Virus record (IMG/VR): IMGVR_UViG_3300015371_000003
Coordinates: 52,230 to 116,229 of that record
Source of the DNA: a virus
Length of the DNA stretch: 64,000 bases
Reading direction: 5' to 3' (one strand)
The notes beneath the pieces were generated by a model. It was not told where the DNA came from. It ran no database searches and saw nothing but the letters and a program-made list of their open reading frames with translations. The position numbers and the translations under genes are program-made. Of the stretch, positions 1,631 to 16,690 are shown piece after piece (positions within the stretch are counted from its first letter, which is position 1; each line of letters starts with the position of its first letter).

Positions 1631-3625
1631 ATGCTCAAGTTGACGGACGGCACGCCCCCCAAAGACACTCCTGAATCCAAGATTACCTTCATCCAGAAGG
1701 TGATCAAGGGTGAAACGTGGATGGTGATGGCGCACTCCGCCGTCGAATTAGAGGATGAGTTTTCCAGCCTCTATTACACGGCAGGGCAGCAGAACAACCT
1801 GTTCCTGATGCCCCCGTTCGAACCCAACGTCCTCCTGAACCTCGTCCAGACCAACAACATCCTCAACCAGTGCATCGAAGCGATGGAAGTGAACATCGAT
1901 GGCACCGGGCATGAGTTTATTCCGGCGAAGGATAAAGCCTCCGACAAGTCCGCAGGAAAGCCGGGAGCCGAGGACAACGCTCCGGCACAGTCAGGCATTC
2001 CTCCGCCGACATCTTTTGGCAGCATCCGCAAACAGGATGCGACGGCGGATGACATCGATGAGGAGGAGAAGAAAGTAGCGGAGGGATTCTTCAAAGAACC
2101 CTATCCGAACACCTCGTTTGTGTCGATACGCCGGAGAATGCGGCGGCAGATGGAATCGGTGGGCTATGCGTTCCTCGAAGTACTCCGCAATGTGGCCGGG
2201 GACGTAGTAGCTATCCGGAACATTGAAACGCAGCATGTTCGCATGGTGAAGCTGGATGCCCCCATTCAGGTGAAGAAGAAGATTGAGCGGGACGGGAAAG
2301 TCGTGGAACTGGTGCTCTGGGAGCGGGAGCGACGATTTGCACAGACGGTGGCCCTGAAGCAGCAGGTGTACTACCGGGAGTATGGGTCCACCCGTGAAAT
2401 CAACCGGGAAACGGGGGATTGGGAGACGGACACCGAGAAGGTACCGCCGGAGAAGCGGGGATCAGAACTGCTGATGTTTGGGATCAATCCGGACGTGACC
2501 ACCCCGTACTTCCTCCCCCGGTGGATCAACGAGTTACCCTCCGTCATCGGTTCCCGAGCGGCGGAGGAACAGAACCTGCAATTTCTGGATGCGGGTGGTC
2601 TGCCTCCGGCCATCGTATTTATCCAAGGCGGCACACTCATCAAGGACACCTCCGACCAACTCCGCATGTATTTGTCTGGCCTGAACAAGAACAAGAACCG
2701 GGCGGTGGTCGTGGAGGTGCAATCCTCCAGTGGATCACTGGATGCGGCGGGCAAGGTGGATGTGAAAGTCGAGCGATTCGGTTCTGCCCAATCCCAAGAC
2801 GCGATGTTCACCAACTACGATGAATCCACCGAGGAGCACGTGCGGATCGGCTTCCGGTTGCCCAAGATTTTTCTGGGGCGGGAGGAATCCTACAACTTTG
2901 CGACGGCACAAGTGGCCTACATGATTGCGGAGGCCCAAGTCTTTGGTCCGGAGCGGGAGGAGTTTGACAAGATCATCAACAAGACGATCATCAAGGAACT
3001 GAAGCTCAAGACACTGGAATTCAAGTCCAAGCCCATTACCTTGAAGGATGTCACGTCGATTCTGACGGCTCTGGAATTGTCGGCACCGATGGCAACGCGG
3101 GAATCCTTCCTGAAGGAAGTGAATACGTCGGTGGGCACGTCGTTGGAACTGGCGGAAGTCCCGGCCCCGAATGTGGCCCCCGGTCAAACGCCGTTGCCGA
3201 ATACGCGGACCATCGATGAGATGCACCACGGTGAACTGCCCGCGTCTACCCAAACTCCGCAGATGACGGCTCCGCAACAGGAACCCAAGCCCGAGCCACC
3301 ACCGAAGGAGACACACGTCATCCTGAAACCGGGGGATGAGATGCACCCAGTGCCCGCCAAGGATGAGACGATTCGGGCTAAGCCGAAGGAGAAGAAGGCG
3401 GCGAGTGACATCCTGACGCTAGCGCAGGATTACGCCATCTATCAGGGGTTGATGCCCCAACTGGCGATCAAGCAGGAGTTGACCAAAGAGCGAGCGGATG
3501 CTATCAACGAGGAGCTAGACACGCTCCACCCGGATGATGTGCGTGTGTTCAACAGCCTGCTGGCGATGATGGTGTTTGGATCGGATGACGCGGATCTGTC
3601 CTCCGTGATTGCCGCCACCCGGTAA
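1631..3625 (+). CDS. Portal protein
   Basis: 664 aa; portal-type motifs (GYAFLEVLRN, YFLPRW, FLDAGGLP, FRLPKIFLG..YNFATA); first gene of the head module; Pro-rich insertion and C-terminal extension. Confidence 0.92.
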   Translation: MLKLTDGTPPKDTPESKITFIQKVIKGETWMVMAHSAVELEDEFSSLYYTAGQQNNLFLMPPFEPNVLLNLVQTNNILNQCIEAMEVNIDGTGHEFIPAKDKASDKSAGKPGAEDNAPAQSGIPPPTSFGSIRKQDATADDIDEEEKKVAEGFFKEPYPNTSFVSIRRRMRRQMESVGYAFLEVLRNVAGDVVAIRNIETQHVRMVKLDAPIQVKKKIERDGKVVELVLWERERRFAQTVALKQQVYYREYGSTREINRETGDWETDTEKVPPEKRGSELLMFGINPDVTTPYFLPRWINELPSVIGSRAAEEQNLQFLDAGGLPPAIVFIQGGTLIKDTSDQLRMYLSGLNKNKNRAVVVEVQSSSGSLDAAGKVDVKVERFGSAQSQDAMFTNYDESTEEHVRIGFRLPKIFLGREESYNFATAQVAYMIAEAQVFGPEREEFDKIINKTIIKELKLKTLEFKSKPITLKDVTSILTALELSAPMATRESFLKEVNTSVGTSLELAEVPAPNVAPGQTPLPNTRTIDEMHHGELPASTQTPQMTAPQQEPKPEPPPKETHVILKPGDEMHPVPAKDETIRAKPKEKKAASDILTLAQDYAIYQGLMPQLAIKQELTKERADAINEELDTLHPDDVRVFNSLLAMMVFGSDDADLSSVIAATR

Positions 3626-3626
3626 G

Positions 3627-5144
3627 ATGCCGACGCTCGATCTGCGGACGTATGTGCTGTTGGAGCGGGCCTTTGTCCGGAGGCTCCAACGGTCATGGCG
3701 GCAGCAGTCGGCTCCGCTGTACGCGAAGATTGCCCAAGCCTGCAACGACCACAAATGGGATGAAGCCCGCCGTCTTGTCACCGATCTGGACATGACGGAG
3801 GTCGGCACCGAGAACCGCGAGTGGATCACGTACATGCTCCGGTCGTGTGCCGTCTTCGGAGCCGGTACCGTCTCCAAGAAGAAACCGAGTTTCGTGGGCG
3901 TGGGCAGCTTCGATACCTTCCTGAAGCAGACCACGAACAATTTCCTGCAATACCTCGAATTGACCGCCACCGCTCAGATCCAAGCGGAAGCGTTGCAATC
4001 AATTGCCGAAGATGAGGCTAAGACCAAAGCCGCGATGTTGAAGGCGGCATGGGATGAATCCCAACACCCCCGTGACAAGGAAGGACAGTTCACGGAGGCC
4101 GGGGCCGGAACGGAGGCCAAGTCGGGGGATCCCGAAGGCAGTGGCCCCGCCCGTGTGGAATGGAACAAGCGCAACAAGGCGGTGATGGAAGCGACTGATG
4201 TCTATATTGACACCAGAGAAGCCCATCGAGCTTTAGTGGAGCGATTGAACGCTGAATATCAGGCGGAAACCCCGATGGGGTATCCAGAGGCCGGGTATGC
4301 GGCGTACAAGAAATCCCAAGCCACATTGGAGCAGGCCAACCAAGCGTTGGCACAGGCCGAAACTGCGCTGAAGCAACAAGAACCGCTGATGCGGAAGGAA
4401 ATCGTCCAGAATCTGGCGACAGACGTAGCCAGTGATTTGGGCGTTGATCCACGTTTGATTGACGTGGTGGACGAAGCTCCGCATCCGTTTACGGTTGGAG
4501 ATAAGCAATTTACCGAGGCGGGGCACTACGATCCGACTACCAAACGCATTCAGTTGAATTCCAACAATATCTCGTATGCGAATGCCCCCGGAGTCAAGGG
4601 GGTGGTAGCCCATGAAATTTCTCATGCGATCTATCACCAGTTGAAGATTGCGGCGGAGGAGGAATTTCAACGGTATCTCGTCAAAGCTACGACCGAGGAT
4701 GCCTATACCCCGTGGTTTCATGAGCGGTTTACCACCGATCCCCATAAAATTGGCCGTCAGGTGAAGCCCGAGTACGCCAAGGAAATGGCCGAGGAATTTC
4801 CGGCGTCTACCGTGCTGGCCCGGTTGAGTGGGGGAGATATTTTCTCCGGTATCACTGATGAGATGATTGCTGAAAATGGGCATAGTCGGTATGCCAAATC
4901 GTACTGGGCCGCTGAAGCCGAGAAACGGATAGGGCTGCGGAATTACCGTAACGCCATCAATGAAACGATAGCCGAGATTACGCGGTGGTTGGCCTACCCC
5001 CGGTCATGGGAGGAGGAGAAGCCACCGGATCTGGATTCTCCGTGGGTCAAGTTGACAGAATCCATGTTGGGATGGCATCAACGACAGCAAGCTGAACAGG
5101 CGAGGCAGTTTGCCGCGTCTTTGGCGTCGGGGTTCCGAGCATGA
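3627..5144 (+). CDS. Putative MuF N-terminal half + tag 1 + zincin-like metallopeptidase cargo
   Basis: Directly after portal; helical N-terminal ~140 aa; WDESQHPRDKEGQFT at 4050; HEISH at 4611 with downstream ETIAE. Confidence 0.8.
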   Translation: MPTLDLRTYVLLERAFVRRLQRSWRQQSAPLYAKIAQACNDHKWDEARRLVTDLDMTEVGTENREWITYMLRSCAVFGAGTVSKKKPSFVGVGSFDTFLKQTTNNFLQYLELTATAQIQAEALQSIAEDEAKTKAAMLKAAWDESQHPRDKEGQFTEAGAGTEAKSGDPEGSGPARVEWNKRNKAVMEATDVYIDTREAHRALVERLNAEYQAETPMGYPEAGYAAYKKSQATLEQANQALAQAETALKQQEPLMRKEIVQNLATDVASDLGVDPRLIDVVDEAPHPFTVGDKQFTEAGHYDPTTKRIQLNSNNISYANAPGVKGVVAHEISHAIYHQLKIAAEEEFQRYLVKATTEDAYTPWFHERFTTDPHKIGRQVKPEYAKEMAEEFPASTVLARLSGGDIFSGITDEMIAENGHSRYAKSYWAAEAEKRIGLRNYRNAINETIAEITRWLAYPRSWEEEKPPDLDSPWVKLTESMLGWHQRQQAEQARQFAASLASGFRA

Positions 5145-6826
5145 TCCTGCCTGAACCTATCACCCTCAACGGTCGGACGGGTACCGTCGCCTATCTGGAC
5201 GCGCAGTGGCATCCAGTCCCGGCGGATCAGGCGACGATGGCGCGAGTCCTGTTCGATGATGGGGGGACTGGTTTCTTTCAGGTGCAACCGATTGCCAAAT
5301 CCACTGAAGATGCGGTAAAATGGGATGAGTCCAAACACCCCCGCGATAAAGAGGGGCAATTTACCGAAGGAGTCGGAGATGGACGAAGTGGTAAGACAAC
5401 CCCGGAATCTGACAGAGGAGCAGGAGGCAGCGGAGGAGTTGGCGTATCGACGCCCCCCAAAGGGGTGGAAGCCGCAGGTCAAAAACGCCCCCCCGCCGTC
5501 CCCGAAGTCCAAGCCGTAGCGCGGGCGTATAACGCGCAGCACGGACTGCCCCCGGTCGAGCACGGCTATGCGACGGTGAATGAGGCCCGAGCAGGGGCCA
5601 TTGCCGATGCCTATGACGCGCTTCCGGTGGATGATACGGATAATCCAGCGGTGCGGGAGGCGTATGCGGCCCTGAGTCGAGAGATTCAGGAGCAGTGGGA
5701 TTTCATCACCTCTCACGGGGTGACGTTCGAACCGTGGACTGGAGAGGGACAGCCGTATCAGAATTCGCCGGAGATGGTGGCGGACATTCAGAAGAACCAC
5801 CACCTGTATTTCTTCACGGGTGGGGAGCCGCATCCGTTGTTGGGGGCGATTGATCCGGCGACGGGGCTGTCCATGAACGACAAACTGCGAGCAGTCCATG
5901 ACTACTTTGGGCATGCCGCAGGCGGCTATGGATTCGGAGCGAGAGGCGAGGAGAATGCGTGGCGGGCGCATTCCCAGATGTTCAGCGCCCAAGCGAGACG
6001 GGCGATGACGACGGAGACACGCGGGCAGAATTCGTGGGTGAATTTCGGGCGACAGAACTACACGCCTGAGGGCATCTACAAGAATATTCCCGCCGCCGAG
6101 CGTCCGTATGCGGTGCAGAAGGTGGCGATTCTCCCCGATGTGTACGTGGTCTTGGAGCATGGTGGAGTCCTGAAATGGGAGGAGTCACAGCATCCACGGG
6201 TGCCGGGAGGGGAGCATGGCGGAGAGTTTACGCGAGTCGCCATTACGAGTCAGCGACCGGCGGATGACCCCGGCCATCAGACCAATCGGGAAGTGTTTGA
6301 GCACATGCGCGTGTTTGCAGGCCGATTGGCAGCCATCCCCGGCGTGACCAACGTGTCGGTGAAGCCCGGAGTCGGGGGGTGGGACGGCGGAGCCGAATCG
6401 ATGTGGCAAGTGTTCTATCGGGGGAATGGTGAAGCTACGCGGTTGGTGGCGATGACGGCCAAGCACTTCAATCAGGATGCGGTGTTGATCCTTAAGAAGT
6501 GTCAGGGTGGAGCGGATTGTCAGCCCGCTACGGAATTGCATTTCTCCAAGGGGATTGGCGGGAAGGTTCGTGTGGGCGTCGAGAAAGTACTGGTTGAGCA
6601 TAAGATTAAGGGCTGGACGTGGATGAAGCGCGACGGACGGACCATTCTTCGAATGGTGGCGATTCCCGAAGAAGGGGATGATCCGGTCACGCATCAGCAG
6701 ACGACAGCGGTGATTAGTCAGCAGTTGCGGGATAAGGGCTTGATGAACAAACGGCACGTGCAAAAGGTGGCCGTGAGTATGATGCGGCGTGAAGGACCAA
6801 ACAGTTATGACCGAATCCTTGGATAA
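5141..6826 (+). CDS. Multi-module cargo protein: small N-terminal domain + tag 2 + HDxxGH domain + tag 3 + unknown domain
   Basis: ATGA overlap; tags at 5321 and 6176; RAVHDYFGH..GFGARGEENAW..MTTETRGQNSWVNFG at ~5890-6050. Confidence 0.8.
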   Translation: MILPEPITLNGRTGTVAYLDAQWHPVPADQATMARVLFDDGGTGFFQVQPIAKSTEDAVKWDESKHPRDKEGQFTEGVGDGRSGKTTPESDRGAGGSGGVGVSTPPKGVEAAGQKRPPAVPEVQAVARAYNAQHGLPPVEHGYATVNEARAGAIADAYDALPVDDTDNPAVREAYAALSREIQEQWDFITSHGVTFEPWTGEGQPYQNSPEMVADIQKNHHLYFFTGGEPHPLLGAIDPATGLSMNDKLRAVHDYFGHAAGGYGFGARGEENAWRAHSQMFSAQARRAMTTETRGQNSWVNFGRQNYTPEGIYKNIPAAERPYAVQKVAILPDVYVVLEHGGVLKWEESQHPRVPGGEHGGEFTRVAITSQRPADDPGHQTNREVFEHMRVFAGRLAAIPGVTNVSVKPGVGGWDGGAESMWQVFYRGNGEATRLVAMTAKHFNQDAVLILKKCQGGADCQPATELHFSKGIGGKVRVGVEKVLVEHKIKGWTWMKRDGRTILRMVAIPEEGDDPVTHQQTTAVISQQLRDKGLMNKRHVQKVAVSMMRREGPNSYDRILG

Positions 6827-8003
6827 GGCGTTACAGGAATTGGAACAGCTTGTGGCAGAAGAAGCCGCGTCATCGGACACGGGTGAAGATTTGCCAGAGT
6901 ATGATCCGCTGCCTGAAGACGATGACGATGTGTCAGTCACGTTTCTGGCTGGTCCTGCGGTGAAATGGGATCCATCCAAGCACCCGCGTGACAAAGAGGG
7001 GCAGTTCACGGACACCGTAGGCACCATCCGAGGAGTGGTTCGCACCACCGCTGAACAGGCCCGCCGGGATCTGGTCGCACTCGGGAAGAAGGTGGAGCAG
7101 TTAGACCACCGTCATGCGAAAGCCGCCGAGGAATCGCGGGTAGCGTGGGCGGCGTTCATGAAAGACGCACGGGAGCGGAAACGTCCCCTGAAGATTGACG
7201 GGGCGGCGGCGAAGAAATTGCCGTCCTACAAAGCCGCGCAAGCCGCCGATGCCAAGGTCATCGCCATTTCCGAGGAGACATCCCGAGTCGCCAGAGAAGT
7301 CAACAAAGAAGCGTTACGACAACTCGTGGTGCCGGAACGGGAGCGGTCCCTTGTGGAGTTTCTGGTTCCCGAGGGGCAATTGAATCCGGATCCACGGATT
7401 GAAGCTGGAATTGGCGACCACGCGAAGCGAGCGTTGGATGTCTTCCGCAAGTACGATGGGTCCGGGGAGTTGATGGGCGTCCCCATTCCACCGGGGAAAG
7501 AAGAACAGTTCAAAGAGATTTTTGGGGACGTGGAGTTTGAACATCTGCCGGATGGAAGTACGTGGGTGACGAAGAAGCTCCGGTTGACGCGGGCACCGGC
7601 TGGTGCGCGGGCCAATGCGTCGGCGTTTGGGGTACAAATTGGTGGGACTCGTGAGTTGGAGCGGACCATCTATCACGAGGTGGCGCACCATGTGGAGTTT
7701 GCCAACTCGGACATTTATCAGGCCGCTGTGGATCTGCGGGCTTCGCTTGCCAGCGAGTCTACGCCCAAGTCCTTGAATGACTTGAAGGGCGTGGGTGGGT
7801 ATGGACCCGAAGAAATTGCGCTGCCGGGAAAATTTCTCGATTCGTATGTGGGCAAGGTCTATCCGGAGGATGCACGGGCCACAGAAATGTTGTCCACCGG
7901 GATGGAGTACTATCTGACGGACCCGATTCGATTTGCCCGAGAAGCCCCCGAGCATTTCAAGTTTGTGTGGAACGTGATGCACGGGAAGTATCGGAGGAAG
8001 TAA
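6807..8003 (+). CDS. Acidic leader + tag 4 + zincin-like metallopeptidase
   Basis: GAAGGA RBS before ATG 6807; tag at 6966; HEVAHHVE at 7674; YVGKVY..ATEMLSTG.E. Confidence 0.8.
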   Translation: MTESLDKALQELEQLVAEEAASSDTGEDLPEYDPLPEDDDDVSVTFLAGPAVKWDPSKHPRDKEGQFTDTVGTIRGVVRTTAEQARRDLVALGKKVEQLDHRHAKAAEESRVAWAAFMKDARERKRPLKIDGAAAKKLPSYKAAQAADAKVIAISEETSRVAREVNKEALRQLVVPERERSLVEFLVPEGQLNPDPRIEAGIGDHAKRALDVFRKYDGSGELMGVPIPPGKEEQFKEIFGDVEFEHLPDGSTWVTKKLRLTRAPAGARANASAFGVQIGGTRELERTIYHEVAHHVEFANSDIYQAAVDLRASLASESTPKSLNDLKGVGGYGPEEIALPGKFLDSYVGKVYPEDARATEMLSTGMEYYLTDPIRFAREAPEHFKFVWNVMHGKYRRK

Positions 8004-8230
8004 TGGTGGAAGTCGAAGTGTACGGCGAACGAGCACGGTGCCAAAACGGGGTGTGGACGGCGGAGAGTCAGGCGCTGACGGATCTGCTGAACGCTCCGTG
8101 GAATCAGCCGGATGCCTTCCGGTATCGGCTGGATCCGGATATCGATGCGGCGGAGCACGTCGTGAAGACGATGGGCGCACAGGTGATTTCCACCGAACCC
8201 CCGCCCACTGAACCCGGCGTGGTGTACTGA
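8003..8230 (+). CDS. Small acidic protein, putative immunity/partner of the upstream metallopeptidase
   Basis: TAATG coupling; GGAGG RBS; 75 aa. Confidence 0.6.
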   Translation: MVEVEVYGERARCQNGVWTAESQALTDLLNAPWNQPDAFRYRLDPDIDAAEHVVKTMGAQVISTEPPPTEPGVVY

Positions 8231-8273
8231 CGAAACCTTAGGAGTTGCACTTGAGTGCAACGGAGCAACGCCG

Positions 8274-10082
8274 ATGCGGTCGTACCGAGACATTCTCCGG
8301 GGGGCATTGCGTTACGTCCACATCCTCAAGTGGGATGAGTCTAAAATTCACCGTAATCCTGCCGGGAGTCCGGGTAGTTCCGGGGGGCAGTTTGCGAAGA
8401 TGGGGATGCGGGGGAGTGCGTATGGCACGGCTCCGGTGCCCTCCTCTGAAGCTATTGCCCGTATGCCAAGTGGGGCACCGGAAGCGATGGCCCACATGCG
8501 ACGGGCGGGCCTGATCGCACAGCAGGATCGGGAGAAGTATCAGGAATTAGCCGCAGCGGAATCCCAAGCGGTGCGTCAAGGCGGCGGCGTGGCCGGATGG
8601 CGGTCGAGGGATAAAGCCGCAGAGCGGTACAAGGATGTGCTGATCAACCGCCCCCGTGCGGAGAATTTCGAACCACCTCCTCCCCCACCCCCAGAACCCA
8701 CACCAGTACTCACGTCTGGCAGTGCCACCAGTGTCGTGAAGAAATTGGGCGGCAGTTCGAATGCCTGCTACGTCGTCCAGATGGAGGATGGTTCCAAAGC
8801 CTTCTTCAAACCGGAAGCCGGGGAGACGTGGGAAGCCGGGTTCTGCAACAACGACATTTCCACCTACATCACCAATAAAGACTTTTCACTGGCGGAGCGG
8901 GAAGCCACCGCACATGAAGTGTCTATCGCGTTGGGGTTTGGGGAGTTGGTGCCGGAAACCCATCTCCGTGAACACTTCGACGTGCCGGGGATCGATCTAG
9001 CCACCGATGATGAATCCGGCGGCGGTTACGATGAAGACTACGTGCGGAGCCTCTACAACCAGTACCATGAAAAAGCCCAAGAAAAGGCTTTTGATGAGGC
9101 TGGTGAGGAGATGGCGAATCAGTACTATGATGCTCAGCAGGAGCATTTGAGGGATGTCAAGAATCGCGCCGAGGAAATGACGGATATCTGGAATGAGGTA
9201 ATTAAGGAATTTCCAGATGGTCCGGACTACGGATCACAGTCGGCGTTGCAAGAACATCCTCGTCTCCCGCTTGGGTCACAGCACTTCAGCCGCCCCCCGC
9301 AGGTCGGGGTGGTTGATCCACTGGACGTGTTGAAAGAAGCGGATGTGGACATCTCGGCGGCGATGAACAATGAGGAGCGAGAACGGGTTGCGGACGTGTT
9401 CCGTGATCGGTTGAAAGCCGGTCATCAGGAACTAGGCGATGTGGACGAGGAAGCCGCCAAAGACGATCTGGATCGGGATCAGTGGTACGAGGATCACCAA
9501 AATACCGAGGCACGGTTAATCGAAAGCAAAATTCAGTCGTTTGATTCGTGGCGGCATAGTCAGGGTTACGACAGCGGCGATCAAGGAGGGGGCGGCAACG
9601 TCTTCAAGAATTCCGAGGCTCCTCATCCTCACGGCGGATCCCTGCAACGGTGGTTAAACAGCGGAGGCCGCGATGGGGATATGACCCATGAGGAGGCCAC
9701 GCAATTTGCGGTGCTCGATTATGTGTTGGGCACGATGGATCGGCACGGCAACAACATCATGTTCTCCGGTGGGAAAGCCTACGCCATTGATAACGGTTAT
9801 GCCTTCCCCGGCCCGGATACGCCCGATGGGTTTACTTACCGGTCAGATGCCGTACGGGAGTGGATGGGGGATGACCAACACCGCGAAGTCCCCGAAAGCA
9901 CCCGGAATGAAATCTTGGGAGCGATGAATCGGACGGACTGGAAAGCCTTGGTAGACCGTCACCCGAGCATGAGCCGGGAAGAACGGCAGTCGTTTCTGGA
10001 CCGGGTGGACAAGATGAAAGAAGCCCTGTCCTACGCCGAGGGGTTGTCCACCCTCTGGCATGACCAGCAATTGATGTATTGA
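8274..10082 (+). CDS. Tag 5 + HipA/PI3-PI4-kinase-like kinase with large acidic insertion
   Basis: LGGSSN, FFKP, EREA, VPET, GSLQRW, DYVLGTMDRHGNN (9738), AIDNG (9786). Confidence 0.82.
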   Translation: MRSYRDILRGALRYVHILKWDESKIHRNPAGSPGSSGGQFAKMGMRGSAYGTAPVPSSEAIARMPSGAPEAMAHMRRAGLIAQQDREKYQELAAAESQAVRQGGGVAGWRSRDKAAERYKDVLINRPRAENFEPPPPPPPEPTPVLTSGSATSVVKKLGGSSNACYVVQMEDGSKAFFKPEAGETWEAGFCNNDISTYITNKDFSLAEREATAHEVSIALGFGELVPETHLREHFDVPGIDLATDDESGGGYDEDYVRSLYNQYHEKAQEKAFDEAGEEMANQYYDAQQEHLRDVKNRAEEMTDIWNEVIKEFPDGPDYGSQSALQEHPRLPLGSQHFSRPPQVGVVDPLDVLKEADVDISAAMNNEERERVADVFRDRLKAGHQELGDVDEEAAKDDLDRDQWYEDHQNTEARLIESKIQSFDSWRHSQGYDSGDQGGGGNVFKNSEAPHPHGGSLQRWLNSGGRDGDMTHEEATQFAVLDYVLGTMDRHGNNIMFSGGKAYAIDNGYAFPGPDTPDGFTYRSDAVREWMGDDQHREVPESTRNEILGAMNRTDWKALVDRHPSMSREERQSFLDRVDKMKEALSYAEGLSTLWHDQQLMY

Positions 10083-10085
10083 AAC

Positions 10086-10114
10086 TTGACATATCCACCA
10101 TTTGGTGGTAAACT
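10086..10114 (+). promoter_or_regulatory. Sigma70-type promoter for the small downstream gene
   Basis: TTGACA-17 nt-TAAACT with TGn extended -10; CCACCA-TT-TGGTGG palindrome in the spacer. Confidence 0.7.
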
Positions 10115-10134
10115 TACTACATGGGGGGTGTGTG

Positions 10135-10359
10135 ATGCACGTGGAATTGCTGGATGTTTCGTCAGGAAATGAGGAAGTGTACGGCACCGTCCGGATGGAC
10201 AACGGACAGGTGGTAGTCGAAGGGGACGTGCCCGCCCGTGTCAAACGAGATATCGAATTCGAGCGGCGGCACACCGATGTCGGGGACGAAGCGTTTCTTC
10301 TGCGCCTTGAACAGCGGGTGTTCACAGGCCGGTATCTGCGGGCGCGATTCGTGAAATAA
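10135..10359 (+). CDS. Small protein, putative kinase immunity/antitoxin
   Basis: 74 aa directly after the kinase, with its own promoter. Confidence 0.6.
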   Translation: MHVELLDVSSGNEEVYGTVRMDNGQVVVEGDVPARVKRDIEFERRHTDVGDEAFLLRLEQRVFTGRYLRARFVK

Positions 10360-10365
10360 TCCCCC

Positions 10366-13300
10366 ATGCTCCGTATCCACCCGCCGAAGGTGCAACCCAT
10401 TGCACCCTCCCTTCTTGAAGTCCTGAAGTTTGATCCGAGTGAACCTCGTGATCCTCACGGACGATGGACGACTTTCGGCGCGTCCATTCGAGTTGGGGAC
10501 CGAGAGATTGCCGTAGTCAAACCAGCCCGCGCCAGAGACGATCAACTGGTCCCCCTGAACGTCGTCGCATTTGATACCGAATTTCAGCGGGAGCAGGGGT
10601 TTTATCTGGGCGTCGGTGGAATTGGGGGGATCGGCACCCGCTACCAACGTTTCGGGGACTTCATTGCCTCTCATGACAGCATCGAAGCGGCGGAAGTGTC
10701 CGTGCAGGAGAACGGGCGCGTGGGTTTCACCAACGGACGCCACCGGTATGCGTGGCTCCGTGATCAAGGATTGACCACCATTCCCGTAGCCATGACCCCG
10801 GAGTCAGTCAGGAACGCCAAGAAGCATGGGTATCTGGCGGCGGTCAAGCTGGCGTGGGATGAGAGCCAACCTCGTGACGCTAAAGGACGGTGGGCAAAAG
10901 GATCAGCAGAACCTCCACCAGTCGGTCCACGTATTGGATTTGTGGGGCCGGATGGGAAGGAGCATGTTGGACGTAAGACGGGGGGATTAGGAGGGTATTC
11001 CGAAGATCACACGGACACGGCTCGCCGGTTACTAGATAAGGAATACTCCACGGCACTGAGTCAGGCGCAAGCACGTGGTGGGGATTACCCAAATGCCATT
11101 CGTTTGATGTTGGAACAAGGAGCCATTCGGTATTGGGTGCGGAACGGGGAGATTGCGCTGCATTTTCAAGCAGGCCACCCAAAGACCGTCGAACACGTCA
11201 TTCAATTTCTGCATGACAATTTTCAGGATGGGGATCGCATTTATATCGACATCGAAGGGGCCGAACCGCATGTGCATTTTTTCGATAATGTCGGAGCCGC
11301 GAATCGTACTATTCGTCAGACAAAGCCACTCAAGAAGGTGGCGCAAGAGCATTCCTACGGCAACACCCAGATTCAAATTGCTCCGACCAGTGCCGCCGCA
11401 CTTTCTCTGAATATGGCCCGTGCTGCCATCCGCGATGAACATTGCATGGCAACCGGCAAGGATGTGGATCCGAACCATGTGACGGTGCGCTTCGGCCTCC
11501 TGAACGATGATCTGGATGGTCTGCGGTCGTTTATTGTCCGTCAACAGTCCTTCGAAGCTGAGGTCGGAGAGATTGAACTATTCCCGGCCAGTGAGCACAG
11601 CGATGGAGCCGTGCCCGTCGTGGCCCGCATCGTCAGTCCCGAGTTGCATGCCATCGAAGCGGAGATAGGGCAGTATGCCGACTTCAAGGATAAGAATTTC
11701 CCCGAGTACAAACCCCATTGCACCCTTGCCTACGTCCACCCGGACAAAGCGGATTACTACCGTGATCTGTTCGTCAACGGATCGTTCGTGGTGCAGAGCA
11801 TTACCATCAGTCATGCCTCCGGGGTGCAGGAGACGATCCCCTTCGGGATGGCCCAGAAGTGGGACGTGACGAAGCGGGATGGCAAGAGCACCCGCTTTCA
11901 TAATCGTCCGCATTGGGCCGAGAGCCTACACCCACGTCAGCCTGCGGGATCTTCTCGCGGCGGCGAATTCATGTCCACGTTGCATGGTCCTAGAGATGCG
12001 TTGGATTCTCTGCTCAACAAAGAGAAGAACGTCAGCATTGACCGGAATGATGTCCGTCGCTTTCTCGAATTAGCCGGGGAGCAACTGGAAGATCCGGACC
12101 TCACCGATTTGCAAGTCGAGGGGATGGAGATTTTTGGGGGCAATGGTCTGGGCATCAAACGTGATCAGATGCCGCAGATTCCCCGTGAGCATCGGCAACG
12201 ATTTTTGAGAGAGTTGGTGGCGGCGGGTGTCAAGATTACGGAGGAGTCCGTCGATCCCCTCACCCTGAAACCCACCCAGAAGGAAATCTCCGCCCGCCGG
12301 GTGATGGAGAAGATTACCAAGTACGAAACCAAGAACAAAGCCTTTCCTCCCCTCCTCGTCTCTCTGGATGACCGAGTATTAGACGGCCATCATCATTGGG
12401 GCATGATGGCGGCATTTGCGCTGGATGTACCGGAGGCCAAGGTGCCCATCTTCCGGTTGCACATCAAGACCAAAGCCGCCTTGTCCATGATGCACGCTTA
12501 CATGCGAAAGCACCACATCAAGCGGGCGTCGATTACCGGGGAGAAGATTGCAGCGGATCCAGTCACAGGACGCTACGTTACACCTTTCGTCTCTTTCGAA
12601 AAACAAGGCGATGAACAACTCCGGATGATCGCCAGTCTCAATTCCAGCCGGTTGGCGACGTGGGGATTCACGGCAGAGGCCGAAGTCTTGGGGATGGCCC
12701 GGTACAAGTTGACCGCTGTACTGGACGGTCGCACCAGCAAATTCTGCCGGATGATCAACGGACATATCTTCGACGTGCCGGATGCCCGCCGCAAGGTGAT
12801 CGAAGCCCTGAACGTCCAAGACCCGAACGACTTGAAGACGGTGCAGCCGTGGCCCAAGCAAACCAAGGAGGCGATGGCTGAGTACGCCAAGATGAGTCCA
12901 CAGGATTTTGTGGATCGGGGACTGCACATTCCTCCGTATCATCCCCACTGCCGCACGCTCCTCCGCCATGTGCAATCAAGTGCAGGGAAAGCCACCGAAC
13001 CTCCGGTCCCCACCCTCCCTGATGACACCGAGGTGTTCCATCCGATCACCCAAGCGGACTTGAAAGAGTTGGGGGTGGAGGCCACGCCCGAAGAAGTTGC
13101 GTGGTGGAACAGTCAGATTGGGATGAGTCCCACGGAGTTGATCGCCAAGCTCACCGGCATGCCGCCCCAAGAAATTCTGACCAAGGGCAAAGGCATCGGA
13201 GCCAATCCTATTCGCTTCGATGAGGGGGGCGCGGGGAACATCGGCGTCCGAGCCAGAGGCGAACTACCGAGCGGCGTGGAATTCGCCATGGGCGCGATTC

Positions 13301-13773
13301 TCGATCCGTTCACAGGCATTTTCTACTTGTCAGAAGCCGCACTGGAAGTCGGAACACCAGCGGCAGAAATCTCGTTTCTCAAGAATCTGTTCTCGGAGAT
13401 GATCAATACCGGCCTTCGCACGTCAGCGACCGAAGTGGCGGTGGGCGTGGCCGGGAATGCGGCGTATTATGCGAAACTCGGTTTCCTCCCCGATGATTTG
13501 GAGTGGGAGACGCTACGCACGCATACGTTGACGGAGCTAGAGAGCGGTGGATTGCAGGAGATGTTTCAGTCCTTGGCCCCGCTGGATCAGGAACTGGTGA
13601 AGCATCTGTTGCAGGATCAATCCGCGTCAGCCCTTTCCGCATTGGTGGATCTGCCATTCACCTACGAAGGCCGTACATTCGGAGAGTGGATGCTGGAAGA
13701 TGCGGGCGGGACGTGGGGATTGGATCTGACGGATGAGGCGGTAGTGAACCAAGCGAAAGCCTACCTGTCATGA
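10366..13773 (+). CDS. Polyvalent head protein: ParB-like, unknown, Acb1-like 2H phosphoesterase, ParB/Srx-like, MuF C-terminal half, possible GNAT-like domain
   Basis: NGRHR; HVT (11476) and HCT (11716); DGHHHW (12382); LDGRTSKFC..G..F and PPYHPHCRT (12931); YYAKLGF (13465); tags at 10429, 10855, 11914. Confidence 0.85.
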   Translation: MLRIHPPKVQPIAPSLLEVLKFDPSEPRDPHGRWTTFGASIRVGDREIAVVKPARARDDQLVPLNVVAFDTEFQREQGFYLGVGGIGGIGTRYQRFGDFIASHDSIEAAEVSVQENGRVGFTNGRHRYAWLRDQGLTTIPVAMTPESVRNAKKHGYLAAVKLAWDESQPRDAKGRWAKGSAEPPPVGPRIGFVGPDGKEHVGRKTGGLGGYSEDHTDTARRLLDKEYSTALSQAQARGGDYPNAIRLMLEQGAIRYWVRNGEIALHFQAGHPKTVEHVIQFLHDNFQDGDRIYIDIEGAEPHVHFFDNVGAANRTIRQTKPLKKVAQEHSYGNTQIQIAPTSAAALSLNMARAAIRDEHCMATGKDVDPNHVTVRFGLLNDDLDGLRSFIVRQQSFEAEVGEIELFPASEHSDGAVPVVARIVSPELHAIEAEIGQYADFKDKNFPEYKPHCTLAYVHPDKADYYRDLFVNGSFVVQSITISHASGVQETIPFGMAQKWDVTKRDGKSTRFHNRPHWAESLHPRQPAGSSRGGEFMSTLHGPRDALDSLLNKEKNVSIDRNDVRRFLELAGEQLEDPDLTDLQVEGMEIFGGNGLGIKRDQMPQIPREHRQRFLRELVAAGVKITEESVDPLTLKPTQKEISARRVMEKITKYETKNKAFPPLLVSLDDRVLDGHHHWGMMAAFALDVPEAKVPIFRLHIKTKAALSMMHAYMRKHHIKRASITGEKIAADPVTGRYVTPFVSFEKQGDEQLRMIASLNSSRLATWGFTAEAEVLGMARYKLTAVLDGRTSKFCRMINGHIFDVPDARRKVIEALNVQDPNDLKTVQPWPKQTKEAMAEYAKMSPQDFVDRGLHIPPYHPHCRTLLRHVQSSAGKATEPPVPTLPDDTEVFHPITQADLKELGVEATPEEVAWWNSQIGMSPTELIAKLTGMPPQEILTKGKGIGANPIRFDEGGAGNIGVRARGELPSGVEFAMGAILDPFTGIFYLSEAALEVGTPAAEISFLKNLFSEMINTGLRTSATEVAVGVAGNAAYYAKLGFLPDDLEWETLRTHTLTELESGGLQEMFQSLAPLDQELVKHLLQDQSASALSALVDLPFTYEGRTFGEWMLEDAGGTWGLDLTDEAVVNQAKAYLS

Positions 13774-14007: not shown

Positions 14008-14526
14008 ATGCCCCTACATACGACCGGATTGACTTCGCGGCACGACCTCGATCATCCGGACGAGAAACCTCCTGCGAAGGCCGATCCGCTGCCCTATGAA
14101 CGGGTGTTGAAGTTCAACCCCAATCATGGGCCGGATGGCCGGTTCACCTCCGGCGGTGGAGGCCGCAGAGGTGGGACGGAAGGTCCACCGCGAGTGGGAG
14201 CCTTCGGGCAGAAGCTGTCTCCGGCGGAGGTTGAGTTTCGGGTTTCTCGCCCGAAAACATATCAAGATCGATTGAAAGGTTCAGCGGCACGAGCCGCGAA
14301 TGATGCGAGGCTGGATCGACAGCAGGCGGAAGTCGCCCGTCAGCAACAAGAATCTCTCGCAGAAGCAACAAGAATTATTTCTGGAGTGACCTATGCCTCA
14401 GCGGGGCGTCAAGCATCGGCCCGCCAGATGCTGAGCAATGCGAGTCTTGCGACTCGTGCGACGACTACCACGCACACGGGTTCGATGGTCGGAGGTGTTC
14501 CCACCAAGCGATCCACTTTCAGCTAA
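14008..14526 (+). CDS. Putative internal head protein with tag 9
   Basis: GGGAG RBS; MPLHTTGLTSR leader; YERVLK-FNPNHGPDGRF. Confidence 0.7.
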   Translation: MPLHTTGLTSRHDLDHPDEKPPAKADPLPYERVLKFNPNHGPDGRFTSGGGGRRGGTEGPPRVGAFGQKLSPAEVEFRVSRPKTYQDRLKGSAARAANDARLDRQQAEVARQQQESLAEATRIISGVTYASAGRQASARQMLSNASLATRATTTTHTGSMVGGVPTKRSTFS

Positions 14527-14538
14527 GGGATTCGGGTC

Positions 14539-14844
14539 ATGCCCATCACTTCCGGGTTTACTACCCGTGCCGCCGCCGCCGAGAAAGGCGAAGGCCATAT
14601 CCACACGGATAAGTGGCATCGCTGTATTGAGCACGTGAAAGGCAAAAGCAGCGGCGTCGATCCCTATGCGGTGTGTACCCACAGCATCGGATATGCGGGA
14701 TCGGTCAATCCTGAACATCGGACGGAAGGACGCCATGCGTCCGCGAATCCCAAGCGGTTCAAGACCAAAGAAGGCCAGCGAAGTGCCCGTGCCCGTGAGA
14801 AAGCCGCGAAACAGTCCTATGCGGAAGTCCTGAAGTTCAAATAG
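14539..14844 (+). CDS. Small basic putative internal head protein
   Basis: MPITSGFTTR leader; KWHRCIEHV..DPYAVC; ends SYAEVLKFK. Confidence 0.7.
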   Translation: MPITSGFTTRAAAAEKGEGHIHTDKWHRCIEHVKGKSSGVDPYAVCTHSIGYAGSVNPEHRTEGRHASANPKRFKTKEGQRSARAREKAAKQSYAEVLKFK

Positions 14845-14847
14845 TCC

Positions 14848-15924
14848 ATGCCGATTACGGAAGGCTTTACCACACGGGGGATGGTCGCCAAAAGTGGCTA
14901 CTCGTGTGTCGGTCCCCCCAAGCAAGGGCACATGGAGAAGCGGGGGCACCAGAAGAAACGGAAAGCCGCCTCCTATCTGGGGGTGTTGAAGTTTGATGAA
15001 AGTGCGGTCAATCGCCAACCAGCGGGTGCTCCCGGTAGCAAAGGCGGAGAATTCGCCCCGAAAGGTCAAGGATTTAAGGGGAGTACCGGCAGCAGAACTG
15101 GTAAAGATTTGACGCCCGCTCAGCGAGCCATGCAGCGGACGTTGAAGGAACAGAGCCGCAAGCGCATCCATAAAGTGGACACCCCCGAACAAGGGGTGGC
15201 GCTGATTCTCAAGGGCGAACGGGTGGAATTACGGGACACCAAAGATGTTCACACGGTCCTCAAAGAACTAGGCGAGATGGCGATCAAAGCCAAGGAAGCC
15301 TGTGGCGGGAAGGAACCGTGTGAAGGCGTCCCCAATTTCGATCCCTGTCTGGTGACGGTCAAAGGCACCAGCTTGTTTTGCTCTGAAAAACTCAAAACGA
15401 AAGAATTTCCTCACGGGATTCCGCGTATTGAGATGCCGCAGTTCAAGTCCAAGAATCCCGTGCCGGGGAGCGAAGCCGATAAACTGCCCCGTGATGCCAA
15501 CGGAGAAGTGGATGCTACGGATGCGTTTCTCAAGCATCTGGATGAAGCAGGTGTGAAAACAAATTCGTATGACACCGTGCTTGCCCGCAAATTGAAGGCG
15601 AGTCAGGCGGAGATGGAAGGCGCGAAAGTCGCCGCCATGATGCTGTCGTCACGGGATCCCAAGAAAGCCCGTATTGTGGTGTCGGCAGACAACTACGTGG
15701 TGGATGGGCACCACACGTGGGCCGCGTCGGTGGGCCGGGATGCTGAGGACGGCAATCTGGACAACGACAAAGAAATGGAAGTGGTCCGGATCAATCTGCC
15801 GATGTCCGACATCTATCAGTTGGCGGTGGAGTGGACCAAGACTTTTGGCATGCCGCAAGCCGGTATCAAAAAGCGTGATTGGTTGAGGGCTGTGCTCACC
15901 TTCGGGCAGGCGTCTCTCAACTGA
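14848..15924 (+). CDS. Tag 10 + ParB/Srx-like domain protein
   Basis: MPITEGFTTR leader; tag at 14992; LKASQ..IVVS.DNYVVDGHHTW (15703); paralogous to the 11971-12540 module. Confidence 0.78.
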   Translation: MPITEGFTTRGMVAKSGYSCVGPPKQGHMEKRGHQKKRKAASYLGVLKFDESAVNRQPAGAPGSKGGEFAPKGQGFKGSTGSRTGKDLTPAQRAMQRTLKEQSRKRIHKVDTPEQGVALILKGERVELRDTKDVHTVLKELGEMAIKAKEACGGKEPCEGVPNFDPCLVTVKGTSLFCSEKLKTKEFPHGIPRIEMPQFKSKNPVPGSEADKLPRDANGEVDATDAFLKHLDEAGVKTNSYDTVLARKLKASQAEMEGAKVAAMMLSSRDPKKARIVVSADNYVVDGHHTWAASVGRDAEDGNLDNDKEMEVVRINLPMSDIYQLAVEWTKTFGMPQAGIKKRDWLRAVLTFGQASLN

Positions 15925-15935
15925 ATGGAGAGCCT

Positions 15936-16676: not shown

Positions 16677-16690
16677 CAGGGGAGGGGCGT

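Follow-up and report, generated by a model that had tools for sequence, protein, structure and literature searches.

MuF is a small head protein that normally enters the capsid together with the portal. The MuF gene of an uncultured 116-kb phage is present in two parts, with 8.5 kb of enzyme modules lying between them. Comparison of its sequence with those of relatives shows that the hinge of MuF is interrupted in this phage lineage and that the gap holds a hypervariable array of cassettes, each headed by a peptide tag. The gene looks like a loading dock for changeable proteins that probably enter the host by injection; what is new here is the split of MuF, the tag itself being widespread. Within the window (the 64,000-nucleotide stretch of DNA that was analysed), the region is organized as follows.

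1631–3625, plus strand: portal protein (phrog_12, E 4.5e-20)
3627–4049, plus strand: MuF N-terminal helical domain (MuF-N), first 141 residues of ORF 3627–5144 (ORF1)
4050–4091, plus strand: tag 1, WDESQHPRDKEGQF, in a disordered linker (model pLDDT 26–42)
4092–5144, plus strand: zincin-like metallopeptidase module 1 (HEISH at 4611–4625)
5141–6826, plus strand: ORF2, with a 60-residue leader, tag 2 (5321–5362), a phrog_3170 module, tag 3 (6176–6229) and a further module
6789–8003, plus strand: ORF3, with an acidic leader, tag 4 (6966–7007) and zincin-like module 2 (HEVAH at 7674–7688)
8274–10082, plus strand: ORF4, with a 19-residue leader ending ...YVHILK, tag 5 (8331–8393) and a kinase-like domain
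9699–9839, plus strand: PI3/PI4-kinase-like catalytic domain (PF00454, E 3.7e-8, 34 bits against a cut-off of 27.1)
10086–10359, plus strand: small partner gene (probable start ATG 10136, 74 residues)
10366–12555, plus strand: N-terminal two-thirds of ORF5, with three tags and the modules ahead of the MuF core
10429–10467, plus strand: tag 6, then a PFIN/ParB-like module
10855–10893, plus strand: tag 7, then an unknown and a 2H/Acb1-like module (11470–11751)
11914–11970, plus strand: tag 8, then a ParB-like module (11995–12510)
about 12556–13029, plus strand: MuF core domain, residues 731–888 of the 1135-residue ORF 10366–13773 (ORF5)
13033–13773, plus strand: C-terminal GNAT-like domain behind the MuF core

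The first-pass annotation had described a helical start of about 140 residues after the portal, followed by a tag and a metallopeptidase, a recognisable MuF core only at about 12550–12975, and roughly nine modules in five large ORFs, with small ORFs, between the two; all of these were found. The 141-residue stretch ends in ...EDEAKTKAAMLKAA and is followed by the tag and an HExxH zincin, the core carries the motif LDGRTSKFC...PPYHPHCRT, and a search of the 116-kb genome returned this one core only. The insert holds about nine modules, with five large ORFs and two small ones, of which one is conserved and the other doubtful.

Homology confirms the assignment of 3627–4049 as the N-terminal domain of a MuF (SPP1 gp7-like) protein and of the ORF5 segment as its core. 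MuF-N aligns with residues 1–127 of gp003 from Stenotrophomonas phage DLP_5 (35% identity, E 7e-21) and the core with residues 145–303 (52% identity, E 1e-53); because these parts adjoin, the two halves are contiguous in DLP_5. An unsplit MuF lies behind the portal in DLP_5 and in five distant metagenomic contigs (L048, L049, L051, L053 and L056; three distinct arrangements), with 10–17 residues between N part and core, in keeping with the earlier suggestion that joining the halves would give a compact MuF. The homology of 3627–4049 to MuF N-termini, on which that suggestion depended, extends beyond DLP_5 to the contiguous proteins of L048, L051 and L056 (35–47% identity). The PF04233 match to the core (E 1.8e-3, 19.4 bits) falls below the Pfam cut-off of 29.6 bits, and the MuF identity therefore rests on DLP_5-type homology, conserved motifs and gene position; the core also matches head-morphogenesis PHROGs, and the portal is 44.6% identical to that of DLP_5 across 98% of its length. 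Just ahead of the core lies DPVTGRY, whose likeness to the tag end had been pointed out and is real: split relatives keep DPVSGRY, and contiguous relatives have xxR[FY]V there.

The split recurs in all ten distinct close relatives in IMG/VR, whose portals are about 70% identical, with MuF-N at 76–84% and the core at 68–80% identity. Since these are independent metagenome contigs, it is not an assembly artefact. The halves lie 3.0–13.0 kb apart (about 15 kb in one circularly permuted contig) and enclose 2–9 ORFs and 1–11 tags with differing module sets, so that the comparison proposed in the first-pass annotation reveals no fixed cassette content. The 2H module, for instance, directly follows MuF-N in two relatives and is part of the last ORF in this phage, and the phrog_3170 module is present in one of the ten. 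From one relative to another, cassettes have been acquired or lost and their order changed, and at the tags they have been joined into long ORFs or separated from them. Other inserts occupy the same hinge in distant relatives: L054 has an in-frame zincin insert of roughly 338 residues with HELGH, and in L055 MuF is split as two genes, with HESGH after MuF-N. The first module after MuF-N is a zincin in three separate lineages. The hinge is a repeated insertion site, which supports the earlier image of MuF as a landing pad; because the distant relatives took hinge inserts without any tag, tags are not needed for insertion.

The cargo, comprising two zincins and PI3/4-kinase-like, 2H/Acb1-like, ParB-like and GNAT-like domains, reads as typical polyvalent-protein content. 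Assignments are mostly weak, with both zincins, the PFIN-like domain and the Acb1 match below cut-offs, and a defence-system search found no match. Zincin module 1, found in seven of the ten relatives, matches Zn_peptidase_2 (E 1.3e-4) and SprT-like (E 8e-4) in Pfam, both below cut-off; its model (pLDDT 85–95) gives weak fold matches to selecase and ArdC. The ORF2 start overlaps the ORF1 stop (ATGA), and the last ORF2 module is common to five relatives. ORF3 probably starts at ATG 6807; zincin module 2 has no counterpart between the MuF halves in any of the ten relatives, and the one weak partial match to ORF3 is an ORF downstream of MuF in one of them. Homologues of the kinase ORF4 occur in eight of ten relatives as a separate ORF with conserved leader and tag, and the small partner gene, which has a sigma-70-like promoter (TTGACA, 17 nt, TG-n-TAAACT; 10086–10114), has homologues after the kinase ORF in five. 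Matches in ORF5 are PF13563 (2H; E 5.4e-6, scoring exactly its cut-off of 27.0 bits), PF23474 (E 1.5e-3), PF22162 (E 5.2e-4) and phrog_2859 (E 2e-31). The C-terminal domain (pLDDT >88) resembles the GNAT fold (Z 7.5–7.7, rmsd 2.9–3.9 Å over 96–127 residues; Foldseek E 0.03–0.1) and is kept behind the core in close relatives as well as in four of the contiguous metagenomic forms; in DLP_5 a ParB domain takes this place.

The tags follow the pattern [WF]-D-x3-(H)PR-x(2-14)-G-x-[FW], and the cassette head in its fuller form reads [YF]xx[VI]LK-[WF]Dxxx(H)PR-x(2-14)-Gx[FW], followed by the enzyme module. Eight lie between the MuF halves and two at 14113 and 14992, all on the plus strand and in coding frames; the rest of the 64-kb window yielded only one out-of-frame chance match (8756). 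The tag is not peculiar to this locus: a profile search retrieved 2,425 protein clusters at E ≤ 1e-3, among them giants with 17–21 copies, and the motif is widespread among polyvalent and cargo proteins of phages. The proteins retrieved carry ART-PolyVal, ADPrib_exo_Tox, GNAT, Acb1, topoisomerase IB, MuF and Portal_Mu domains, and none of the 41 scanned from the profile matches had conjugation-specific domains. The tag also occurs in the C-terminal extension of the portal of Xanthomonas phage PhiXhv-5, at the junction with portal-fused cargo; it is general and linked to phage heads. Its DNA copies are merely 68–81% identical, with some short stretches in common, and the relatives hold about 90 distinct variants; this synonymous divergence points to selection on the tag peptide rather than on DNA. 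In structural models the tags sit in disordered linkers between folded modules.

Tagged genes also stand alone, one of them well upstream of MuF:

39,659–40,192 (genome coordinates): free-standing tagged ORF of 177 residues, beginning MFAAVLK plus tag, 16 kb upstream

This protein is 70% identical (E 6e-62) to a module fused behind MuF-N in L024, and the tag travels with its cassette; since a tagged gene can lie 16 kb from MuF, the two need not be physically linked. Members of the P0009 family end ...VLKF(K) in five relatives and continue into tag and cargo in two, which puts the unit boundary between VLK and F. Several separate ORFs start directly with M-x-[YF]-x-x-[IV]-L-K-[WF]. Downstream of ORF5, the head module continues:

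14008–14526, plus strand: tagged small protein, leader ...YERVLK, degenerate tag FNPNHGPDGRF at 14113–14145
14539–14844, plus strand: Cys/His-rich protein of 101 residues, ending ...SYAEVLKFK
14848–15924, plus strand: tagged ParB-like protein, tag at 14992–15054 (phrog_2859, E 9.6e-18)
16688–17287, plus strand: prohead protease, XkdF/S78-like (phrog_15223, E 7e-69 on residues 202–387)
17298–18392, plus strand: scaffold-like protein
18433–19377, plus strand: major capsid protein

In two relatives the Cys/His-rich protein runs on at its end into tag and cargo. The protease is 56% identical to that of DLP_5; a longer ORF in the same frame, from 16124, is a spurious upstream extension. The scaffold-like and major capsid proteins (phrog_27672 and phrog_1623 E 8e-98) together close the module.

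Modelling of a contiguous MuF gave pLDDT <50 at residues 141–169, which places the insertion point in a low-confidence linker, and the hinge between MuF-N and core is predicted to be flexible. The separated halves are predicted to bind each other: three runs gave ipSAE values of 0.85, 0.87 and 0.86 against 0.00 for the best of three controls, this score being the model's own confidence, obtained from small custom alignments (15 and 14 rows). Of 80 solved complexes, 58 attained that ipSAE mark, as did 2 of 110 mismatched pairs. The runs share at least 74% of their contacts, with 140–151 confident contacts and partner pLDDT of 88–89, and MuF-N modelled alone is poor (pLDDT 38–67). No sequence relatives of either half were found in the PDB, and a fold search with MuF gave no match.

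Based on these data, a model would suggest that the two halves, the N half joined to a zincin and the core half closing a five-domain protein, come together noncovalently as one MuF fold, which would bind the portal during procapsid assembly and bring both cargo chains inside. Free-standing tagged proteins would be recruited via the same tag. The chains would then undergo cleavage at the tags or close by, probably near the junction of VLK and [WF], with either the prohead protease or the zincins encoded alongside doing the cutting, and the freed enzymes (2H/Acb1-like phosphoesterase, ParB-like nucleases, atypical kinase, GNAT-like domain and peptidases) would be ejected with the DNA, blunting host defences. 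The small partner gene of the kinase, with its own host-type promoter, would silence the kinase at an early stage of infection. Packaging into capsids and cleavage at tags are steps that we infer, the former from gene position, from SPP1 gp7, which enters procapsids via the portal (PMC6316719), and from the polyvalent protein gp47 of phi24B, which was detected in virions (bioRxiv 10.64898/2026.04.10.717836). Taken as a whole, a split MuF with variable cassettes, noncovalent reassembly, packaging, cleavage and ejection is probably, though by no means certainly, the best explanation.

Alternatively, the tags could be cleavage sites only, for the prohead protease or, as in Iyer et al., for zincins after injection, and not addresses; packaging would be limited to chains with a covalent link to a MuF half, and free-standing tagged ORFs would be recent break-offs, acting in the infected cell or being lost. 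Tags in disordered linkers, a zincin first after MuF-N in three lineages, a P0009 family that ends exactly at VLKF and the zincin processing proposed in PMC5512222 agree with this, as does the PhiXhv-5 portal, whose junction tag lies where release is needed and addressing is not. However, in the several separate ORFs that start directly with the M-x-[YF] motif given above such a cut would remove only about seven residues, the kinase ORF is separate with leader and tag conserved in eight of ten relatives, and the remote gene keeps an intact tag and its identity to the fused counterpart, unexpected for a relic; a role in cleavage alone has some plausibility but is unlikely. A neutral gene fission without mechanistic meaning, in which MuF-N is a portal-binding anchor and the core works alone (for example in DNA binding) with no re-association, would suit the flexible hinge predicted, the plain two-gene split in L055 and Pfam's MuF domain model, which is the core only. 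It is decidedly unlikely given the large predicted interface (ipSAE 0.86 against 0.00 in controls, by the model's own confidence), the poor fold of MuF-N modelled without the core, and the retention of both halves in ten of ten split relatives at 68–84% identity.

The island might instead encode late intracellular enzymes for anti-defence or host takeover that lie in the head operon by chance and are not virion cargo, the tag acting to link domains structurally or to mark where recombination takes place, as VENN-type motifs do in polymorphic toxins. Packaging is indeed something we infer, tags do mark cassette exchange junctions, and the short DNA stretches common to tags could act as microhomology. 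Yet both halves of a head protein that associates with the portal have cargo covalently fused to them, the tag co-occurs database-wide with MuF and portal fusions, its synonymous divergence points to the peptide, and anti-defence proteins made late would miss the infecting genome, all of which leave this account a slim chance. Longer fused ORFs in relatives (up to 1,779 residues) could hint that errors in assembly or sequencing have broken up one giant polyvalent ORF, or that programmed frameshifting yields a single chain. This is highly improbable: starts are proper at the ORF boundaries, where an ATGA overlap and conserved leaders are also seen; 7–8 independent contigs show the same ORF1/ORF2 boundary and a kinase ORF that stands apart; a small conserved gene between ORFs has a promoter of its own; and no obvious slippery heptamer was seen at the ORF1/ORF2 junction (5135–5156), the one junction read.

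In phage T4, an N-terminal capsid-targeting sequence marks the unrelated internal proteins and Alt and is cut by the gp21 prohead protease, and these proteins are injected and counter host defence. The present tag is unrelated to that sequence, is also internal and occurs in many copies per chain, and its targeting and cleavage are proposed here. We know of no repeated tag shared among the Dar proteins of phage P1. These large anti-restriction proteins (DarA, DarB, DdrA/B and Hdf) undergo ordered head loading and are injected; by description, the likeness is that loading is tied to head morphogenesis, but in P1 it requires DarA and Hdf instead of a split MuF (PMC12810830). VENN (CdiA) and Rhs pre-toxin motifs likewise bound exchangeable modules with a short motif, at which recombination swaps in spare cassettes (Zhang et al. 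2012, PMC3482391); CdiA and Rhs proteins are secreted from cells and have a single variable toxin at the C-terminus, in contrast to the module arrays in a virion assembly operon seen here.

According to Iyer, Burroughs, Anand, de Souza and Aravind 2017 (PMC5512222), phage-type polyvalent proteins, proposed to be packaged, zincin-processed and injected, string unrelated effector domains into long proteins beside portal and terminase genes, as here; zincin peptidase, ParB-like, 2H, GNAT, kinase and MuF domains are common to both, as are adjacent small ORFs as spare domains that may recombine in. A term search of that paper's main text found no mention of a conserved module-heading tag or a split MuF; its kinase is a truncated Ser/Thr kinase rather than PI3/PI4-kinase-like, and here the MuF anchor itself is split, its halves flanking an array that occupies at least five genes. 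MuF polymorphic toxins of temperate phages (Jamet et al. 2017, PMC5576092) share with this locus a MuF behind the portal that carries variable domains, and small downstream partner (immunity-like) genes. In those toxins one variable domain follows an intact MuF, whereas here the variable part lies between N domain and core, many modules are spread over several genes, and the post-core GNAT-like domain is conserved, not polymorphic.

The gene that follows the portal gene in this phage encodes only the first part of a MuF head-morphogenesis protein. Among named phages, the closest is Stenotrophomonas phage DLP_5 (portal identity 44.6%), in which the gene after the portal, gp003, encodes an unsplit MuF protein of 446 aa. 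This single protein aligns to two separate places in the window: residues 1–127 correspond to the N-terminal 136 residues of ORF1 (35% identity, E 7e-21), and residues 145–303 match residues 736–888 of ORF5 (52% identity, E 1e-53). Based on these alignments, two pieces that are spaced by 17 residues in DLP_5 are separated by 8,506 bases here. The first-pass annotation had proposed a MuF gene split by tagged effector cassettes, and the alignment of both halves to one gene confirms the split. The N-terminal half (MuF-N) begins 2 nt past the portal stop codon (3625/3627), with the core another 8.9 kb on; in contiguous relatives, the entire MuF gene lies directly downstream of the portal gene. The window covers bases 52,230–116,229 of the 116,229-bp IMG/VR viral record, which carries direct terminal repeats, and its head block is arranged as follows.

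Genes of the head block (window coordinates)
1631–3625, + strand: portal, start of the head block
3627–5144, + strand: ORF1, MuF-N followed by a zincin module
5141–6826, + strand: ORF2
6789–8003, + strand: ORF3
7967–8230, + strand: doubtful small ORF among the five large ORFs
8274–10082, + strand: ORF4, the kinase ORF
10102–10359 as listed, + strand: conserved small ORF (74-aa partner gene) 3' of the kinase ORF, probable ATG start 10136
10366–13773, + strand: ORF5, PFIN/ParB-like, 2H, ParB-like, MuF core and GNAT-like domains
14008–15924, + strand: three small or medium ORFs after ORF5
15879–16676, + strand: proline-rich ORF with repeats (265 aa), flanked by the tagged ParB-like gene and the protease gene
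true start near 16688, + strand: prohead protease, 3' of the proline-rich ORF
after the protease, + strand: scaffold-like protein, then major capsid protein

The island of polyvalent genes is thus flanked by the portal gene on one side and by the protease, scaffold and capsid genes on the other. A promoter and terminator scan detected no + strand terminator-like site inside the block and one directly upstream of the portal gene; site counts were no higher than those in shuffled sequences, and the single site used here is the one before the small partner gene. That gene (10086–10359, 74 aa from the probable ATG) has its own promoter-like site, consisting of TTGACA, a spacer of 17 nt and TG-n-TAAACT. 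The proline-rich ORF, which lies in a 64% G+C stretch and has no family match, repeats PEHPIVLPP about four times and NPIANVPGIxNPNPPGW twice. In the 387-aa protease ORF as listed, some 190 upstream residues (16124–16687) are rich in Arg, Ser and Ala and look non-coding, and homology to the relatives begins at MPKPKHK (about 16688).

The core in ORF5 is the only MuF core in the genome. Its motifs, D-G-R-T-x-x-x-C and P-P-x-H-P-x-C-R, are present as LDGRTSKFC and PPYHPHCRT and are invariant in 14 relatives. Because the match to PF04233 falls short of the gathering score (19.4 versus 29.6 bits, E 1.8e-3, profile positions 34–110), the assignment is based on homology to DLP_5, on matches of the core to PHROG head-morphogenesis and minor-head families (E 1e-6 to 1e-7) and on gene position. 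An assembly artefact or a frameshifted polyprotein is contradicted by the ORF boundaries, which are conserved in independent contigs.

Two IMG/VR scans, one with each MuF half, returned 23 and 31 loci, which yielded 10 distinct close relatives after loci on the same contig were merged. In these relatives the portal is 69–73% identical, and MuF is split in all 10. The interval that separates MuF-N from the core measures 3,046, 4,662, 5,587, 8,534, 9,550, 10,674, 10,844, 12,278, 12,972 or 12,992 bases, with two to nine ORFs and 1–11 tags in between, and one additional, circularly permuted contig implies about 15 kb. Module content differs as well, and the same module is found in changing contexts. 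For example, a 2H domain directly follows MuF-N in two relatives and lies in the last ORF of the window phage, and large modules that one phage encodes inside a 1,714-aa ORF have genes of their own in another. Cassette content therefore varies among relatives in insert size, ORF number, tag number and modules.

More distant relatives, with portals 46–51% identical, show other arrangements, both contiguous and interrupted. The contiguous single-gene MuF anticipated by the first-pass annotation was found in DLP_5 and in loci L048, L049, L051, L053 and L056. Locus L054 carries an in-frame hinge insert of about 338 residues with an HELGH zincin motif, and in locus L055 MuF is split over two genes, the first of which encodes MuF-N and an HESGH zincin; a zincin is the first element after MuF-N in three lineages. 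The tag is absent from all seven of these metagenomic forms (L048, L049, L051 and L053–L056). Since the L054 insert and the L055 split occur at the same place as in the close relatives, the sequences indicate that the hinge has been used repeatedly as an insertion site. Tagged genes are also placed between the portal gene and MuF-N in some relatives (L021:8152–9989 and L024:9341–10008), including a 366-aa kinase-like gene that starts MDYARILKW, and L056 has a 1,285-aa ORF there, so that the portal–MuF junction appears to be a second insertion site. In the contiguous MuF of L056 (L056:9566–12181), the invariant motif PPFHP|NCRT is interrupted by some 330 extra residues. This insert terminates in TGN before Cys and has LAGLIDADG-like features, which makes it a probable intein in a head protein.

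The modules share a short N-terminal peptide, the HPR-type tag, of the form [WF]-[DN]-x3-(H)PR-x(2-14)-G-x-[FW], and a K almost always stands before it. Where the tag opens an ORF, it follows [YF]xx[VI]LK, and some genes of relatives start M-x-Y-x-x-I-L-K-W. Ten tags occur in the window, all in the head block, and one elsewhere in the genome; the rest of the window has none in real frames. DNA identity between tag copies is only 68–81%, which argues that the tag is conserved as a peptide. A Cys/His-rich family of about 95 aa (14539–14844 here) ends in VLKF(K) in five relatives and continues into the rest of the tag and a cargo domain in two others, placing the unit boundary at VLK|F. The family member in this phage, a protein of 101 aa, is abundant in conserved His and Cys residues (HIH..WHRC..H..AVC) and for this reason may bind zinc; its gene and those at 14848–14990 and 14008–14112 are neighbors with a common N-terminal MP[IL]T.G[FL]T[TS]R. 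The N-terminus of the scaffold-like protein (17298–17420) contains ...VRFISLVDRAATRIPFRVLKRNKE, and its DLP_5 counterpart keeps ...RIPFRITKSDKE; these stretches resemble the VLK that precedes the tags and may represent another site for the same protease.

The single tag outside the window belongs to a free-standing gene (genome 39,659–40,192; L059:2660–3190) for a 177-aa protein that starts MFAAVLK-FDPAQPRDAKGRW and is 70% identical (E 6e-62) to the module directly after MuF-N in locus L024. The tag thus travels with its cassette, and a free-standing cassette retains it. This gene, whose product contains ..VELYHGTS.. in its body, is located some 12.5 kb ahead of the window; a gene resembling pyruvate phosphate dikinase (PF01326, E 6.7e-40) follows shortly downstream.

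A profile built from 90 tags and searched against 1.84 billion representative proteins matched 2,425 proteins at E ≤ 1e-3, 414 at E ≤ 1e-10 and 29 at E ≤ 1e-30, including giants of 7,334 aa with 21 tags and 5,313 aa with 17 tags. Pfam domains in 51 scanned tag proteins comprise ART-PolyVal (up to six copies), ADPrib_exo_Tox, GNAT, Acb1, topoisomerase IB, Zeta toxin, SNF2, MuF and Portal_Mu, and a tally of 41 members contained no conjugation-specific domain. The motif also occurs in the C-terminal portal extension of Xanthomonas phage PhiXhv-5 and in an HI1409-family protein of a Helicobacter prophage. Searches with single tags were less productive: tblastn with a 38-aa query gave four borderline phage matches (E 0.1–5), of which the two inspected both contain the motif, and two insignificant plasmid matches, and a word-indexed protein search with one tag region returned only ORF3 of the window itself. 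The accessible literature that was searched gave no published account of the tag or of a MuF in two pieces.

Two HExxH modules are present in the cargo, with Pfam zincin matches below cut-offs: the one in ORF1 (HEISH) matches Pfam models weakly, as it does the folds of selecase and ArdC (E 0.35–0.9), and for the second (HEVAH) no relative has an equivalent between its MuF halves. A catalytic domain resembling PI3/PI4 kinases scores over the Pfam cut-off; a PDB sequence search gave weak PI3-kinase rows for ORF4 (E 0.4–0.8) and nothing at E ≤ 1 for ORF2. Other modules comprise a phrog_3170 domain, for which an ESM Atlas search matched nameless viral clusters only, a module common to this phage and five relatives with a faint SAM-lyase hint (E 0.022), a PFIN/ParB-like domain, a domain without assignment, a 2H phosphoesterase that also matches Acb1 weakly, and a ParB-like domain. 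A tagged ParB-like protein is encoded downstream of MuF as well. PADLOC gave no meaningful match. In the two smallest inserts (L020:3619–4500 and L023:3882–4775), the sole tagged module looks by eye like a type IB topoisomerase; Topoisom_I and Top1B_N_bact also occur among tag-bearing database proteins.

Structure predictions place the insertions in a flexible region. The AlphaFold2 model of the contiguous MuF of L051 (542 aa, mean pLDDT 76.9) comprises a helical domain at the N-terminus (11–139), a stretch with pLDDT below 50 (141–169), the core (159–280) and a confident C-terminal domain (300–542) with a GNAT fold (Z 7.5–7.7; rmsd 2.9–3.9 Å over 96–127 residues; Foldseek E 0.03–0.1). Every insert maps to the low-confidence stretch. 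In ORF1 modeled alone, MuF-N is poorly defined (pLDDT 38–67) and the tag region disordered (26–42), with a confident zincin module (85–95). Complex prediction with MuF-N (141 aa, 15-row alignment) and the core (176 aa, 14-row alignment) of the window phage scored 0.86 (runs 0.85, 0.87 and 0.86), compared to 0.00 for the best of three controls; of 80 solved complexes, 58 score at least as high, as do 2 of 110 mismatched pairs. At least 74% of contacts agreed between runs, with 140–151 confident contacts and a partner pLDDT of 88–89. That the score reflects a complex already known to the model is unlikely, because no solved relative of either half was found by sequence or fold: a PDB sequence search with MuF-N and the core gave nothing at E ≤ 1, Foldseek gave nothing at E ≤ 1e-3 for the L051 or ORF1 model, and VIA-align of the MuF model, whose length of more than 400 residues limits what this comparison can show, related MuF-N to generic helical bundles only and the core to no row. 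The prediction supports, rather than demonstrates, reassembly of the two products into one MuF fold.

The split and its conservation, the changing content, the hinge that was used more than once and the general, mobile tag are observations. In the proposed model, the MuF halves would reassemble and be carried into the procapsid by the portal in the manner of SPP1 gp7, which binds the portal and occurs in a few copies per virion (PMC6316719). Free-standing tagged proteins would also be loaded, the tags would be cut by the prohead protease or the zincins, and the cargo would be ejected into the host. The position of tags at the extreme N-terminus of separate genes favors a role as an address, and tags at portal–cargo junctions together with the VLKF ends favor a role as a cut site; both roles may hold. 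An N-degron created by cutting before W/F was set aside, since the second residue is acidic, which is expected to weaken ClpS binding. A wider reading, which we advance tentatively and regard as doubtful, is that MuF acts as a two-piece portal clamp and the HPR tag as a trans-acting address, together forming a general modular cargo-loading code in thousands of phages with the MuF hinge as the preferred integration site. Each MuF half would then pull a chain of enzymes before the halves snap together on the portal, and any gene in the genome could acquire a tag, be loaded and later be cut free in the capsid. If so, the code could be read from sequence and reused for loading chosen proteins into phage heads. 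A tag that serves as an address could also be used to annotate injected proteins in phage genomes.

Phages inject proteins together with their DNA. To our knowledge, it is only in a few model phages, such as T4, P1 and P22, that the selection of unrelated proteins for the capsid and the evolution of the packaged set are understood. The locus described here is a natural comparative experiment, with a conserved anchor, one hinge and ten relatives carrying ten different cargo sets, in which modules occur either joined to the anchor or on their own, always with the shared peptide. Three questions become directly testable: does a divided head protein reassemble and thereby load two chains of cargo, does the tag serve as an address, as a cut site or in both roles, and which packaged enzymes counter which host defenses? 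Candidates include the Acb1-like 2H domain against cyclic-nucleotide signaling, the ParB-like nucleases, and the kinases with antidotes.

The window cargo corresponds to the domain repertoire of phage polyvalent proteins (PMC5512222). [quoted passage not shown] (2017), at least two unrelated effector domains are combined in a single polypeptide (ORF5 and ORF1), and the island lies among portal and other virion genes; the zincin hub domain of that class would be represented by the two HExxH modules, which are below Pfam cut-offs with weak fold matches. A precedent for packaging is phi24B gp47, which was detected in virions (bioRxiv 10.64898/2026.04.10.717836), and by analogy we infer capsid packaging of the cargo and its delivery at infection. 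Within the limits of what sequence can test, the first-pass interpretation of MuF as a landing pad for exchangeable cassettes is supported. In contrast to the MuF polymorphic toxins (Jamet et al. 2017), in which a variable toxin lies C-terminal to an intact MuF, the variable modules here are located between MuF-N and the core, and the domain after the core, variable in MuF toxins, is conserved in the close relatives and in four contiguous metagenomic forms. Those toxins are followed directly by a small immunity gene, for which the conserved 74-aa gene after the kinase ORF is a possible counterpart. Compared to these known systems, the arrangement adds to the phage polyvalent-protein systems a carrier that is split at its hinge and predicted to reassemble, with the hinge apparently serving as the integration site for a tagged, fast-changing, multi-gene cargo set.
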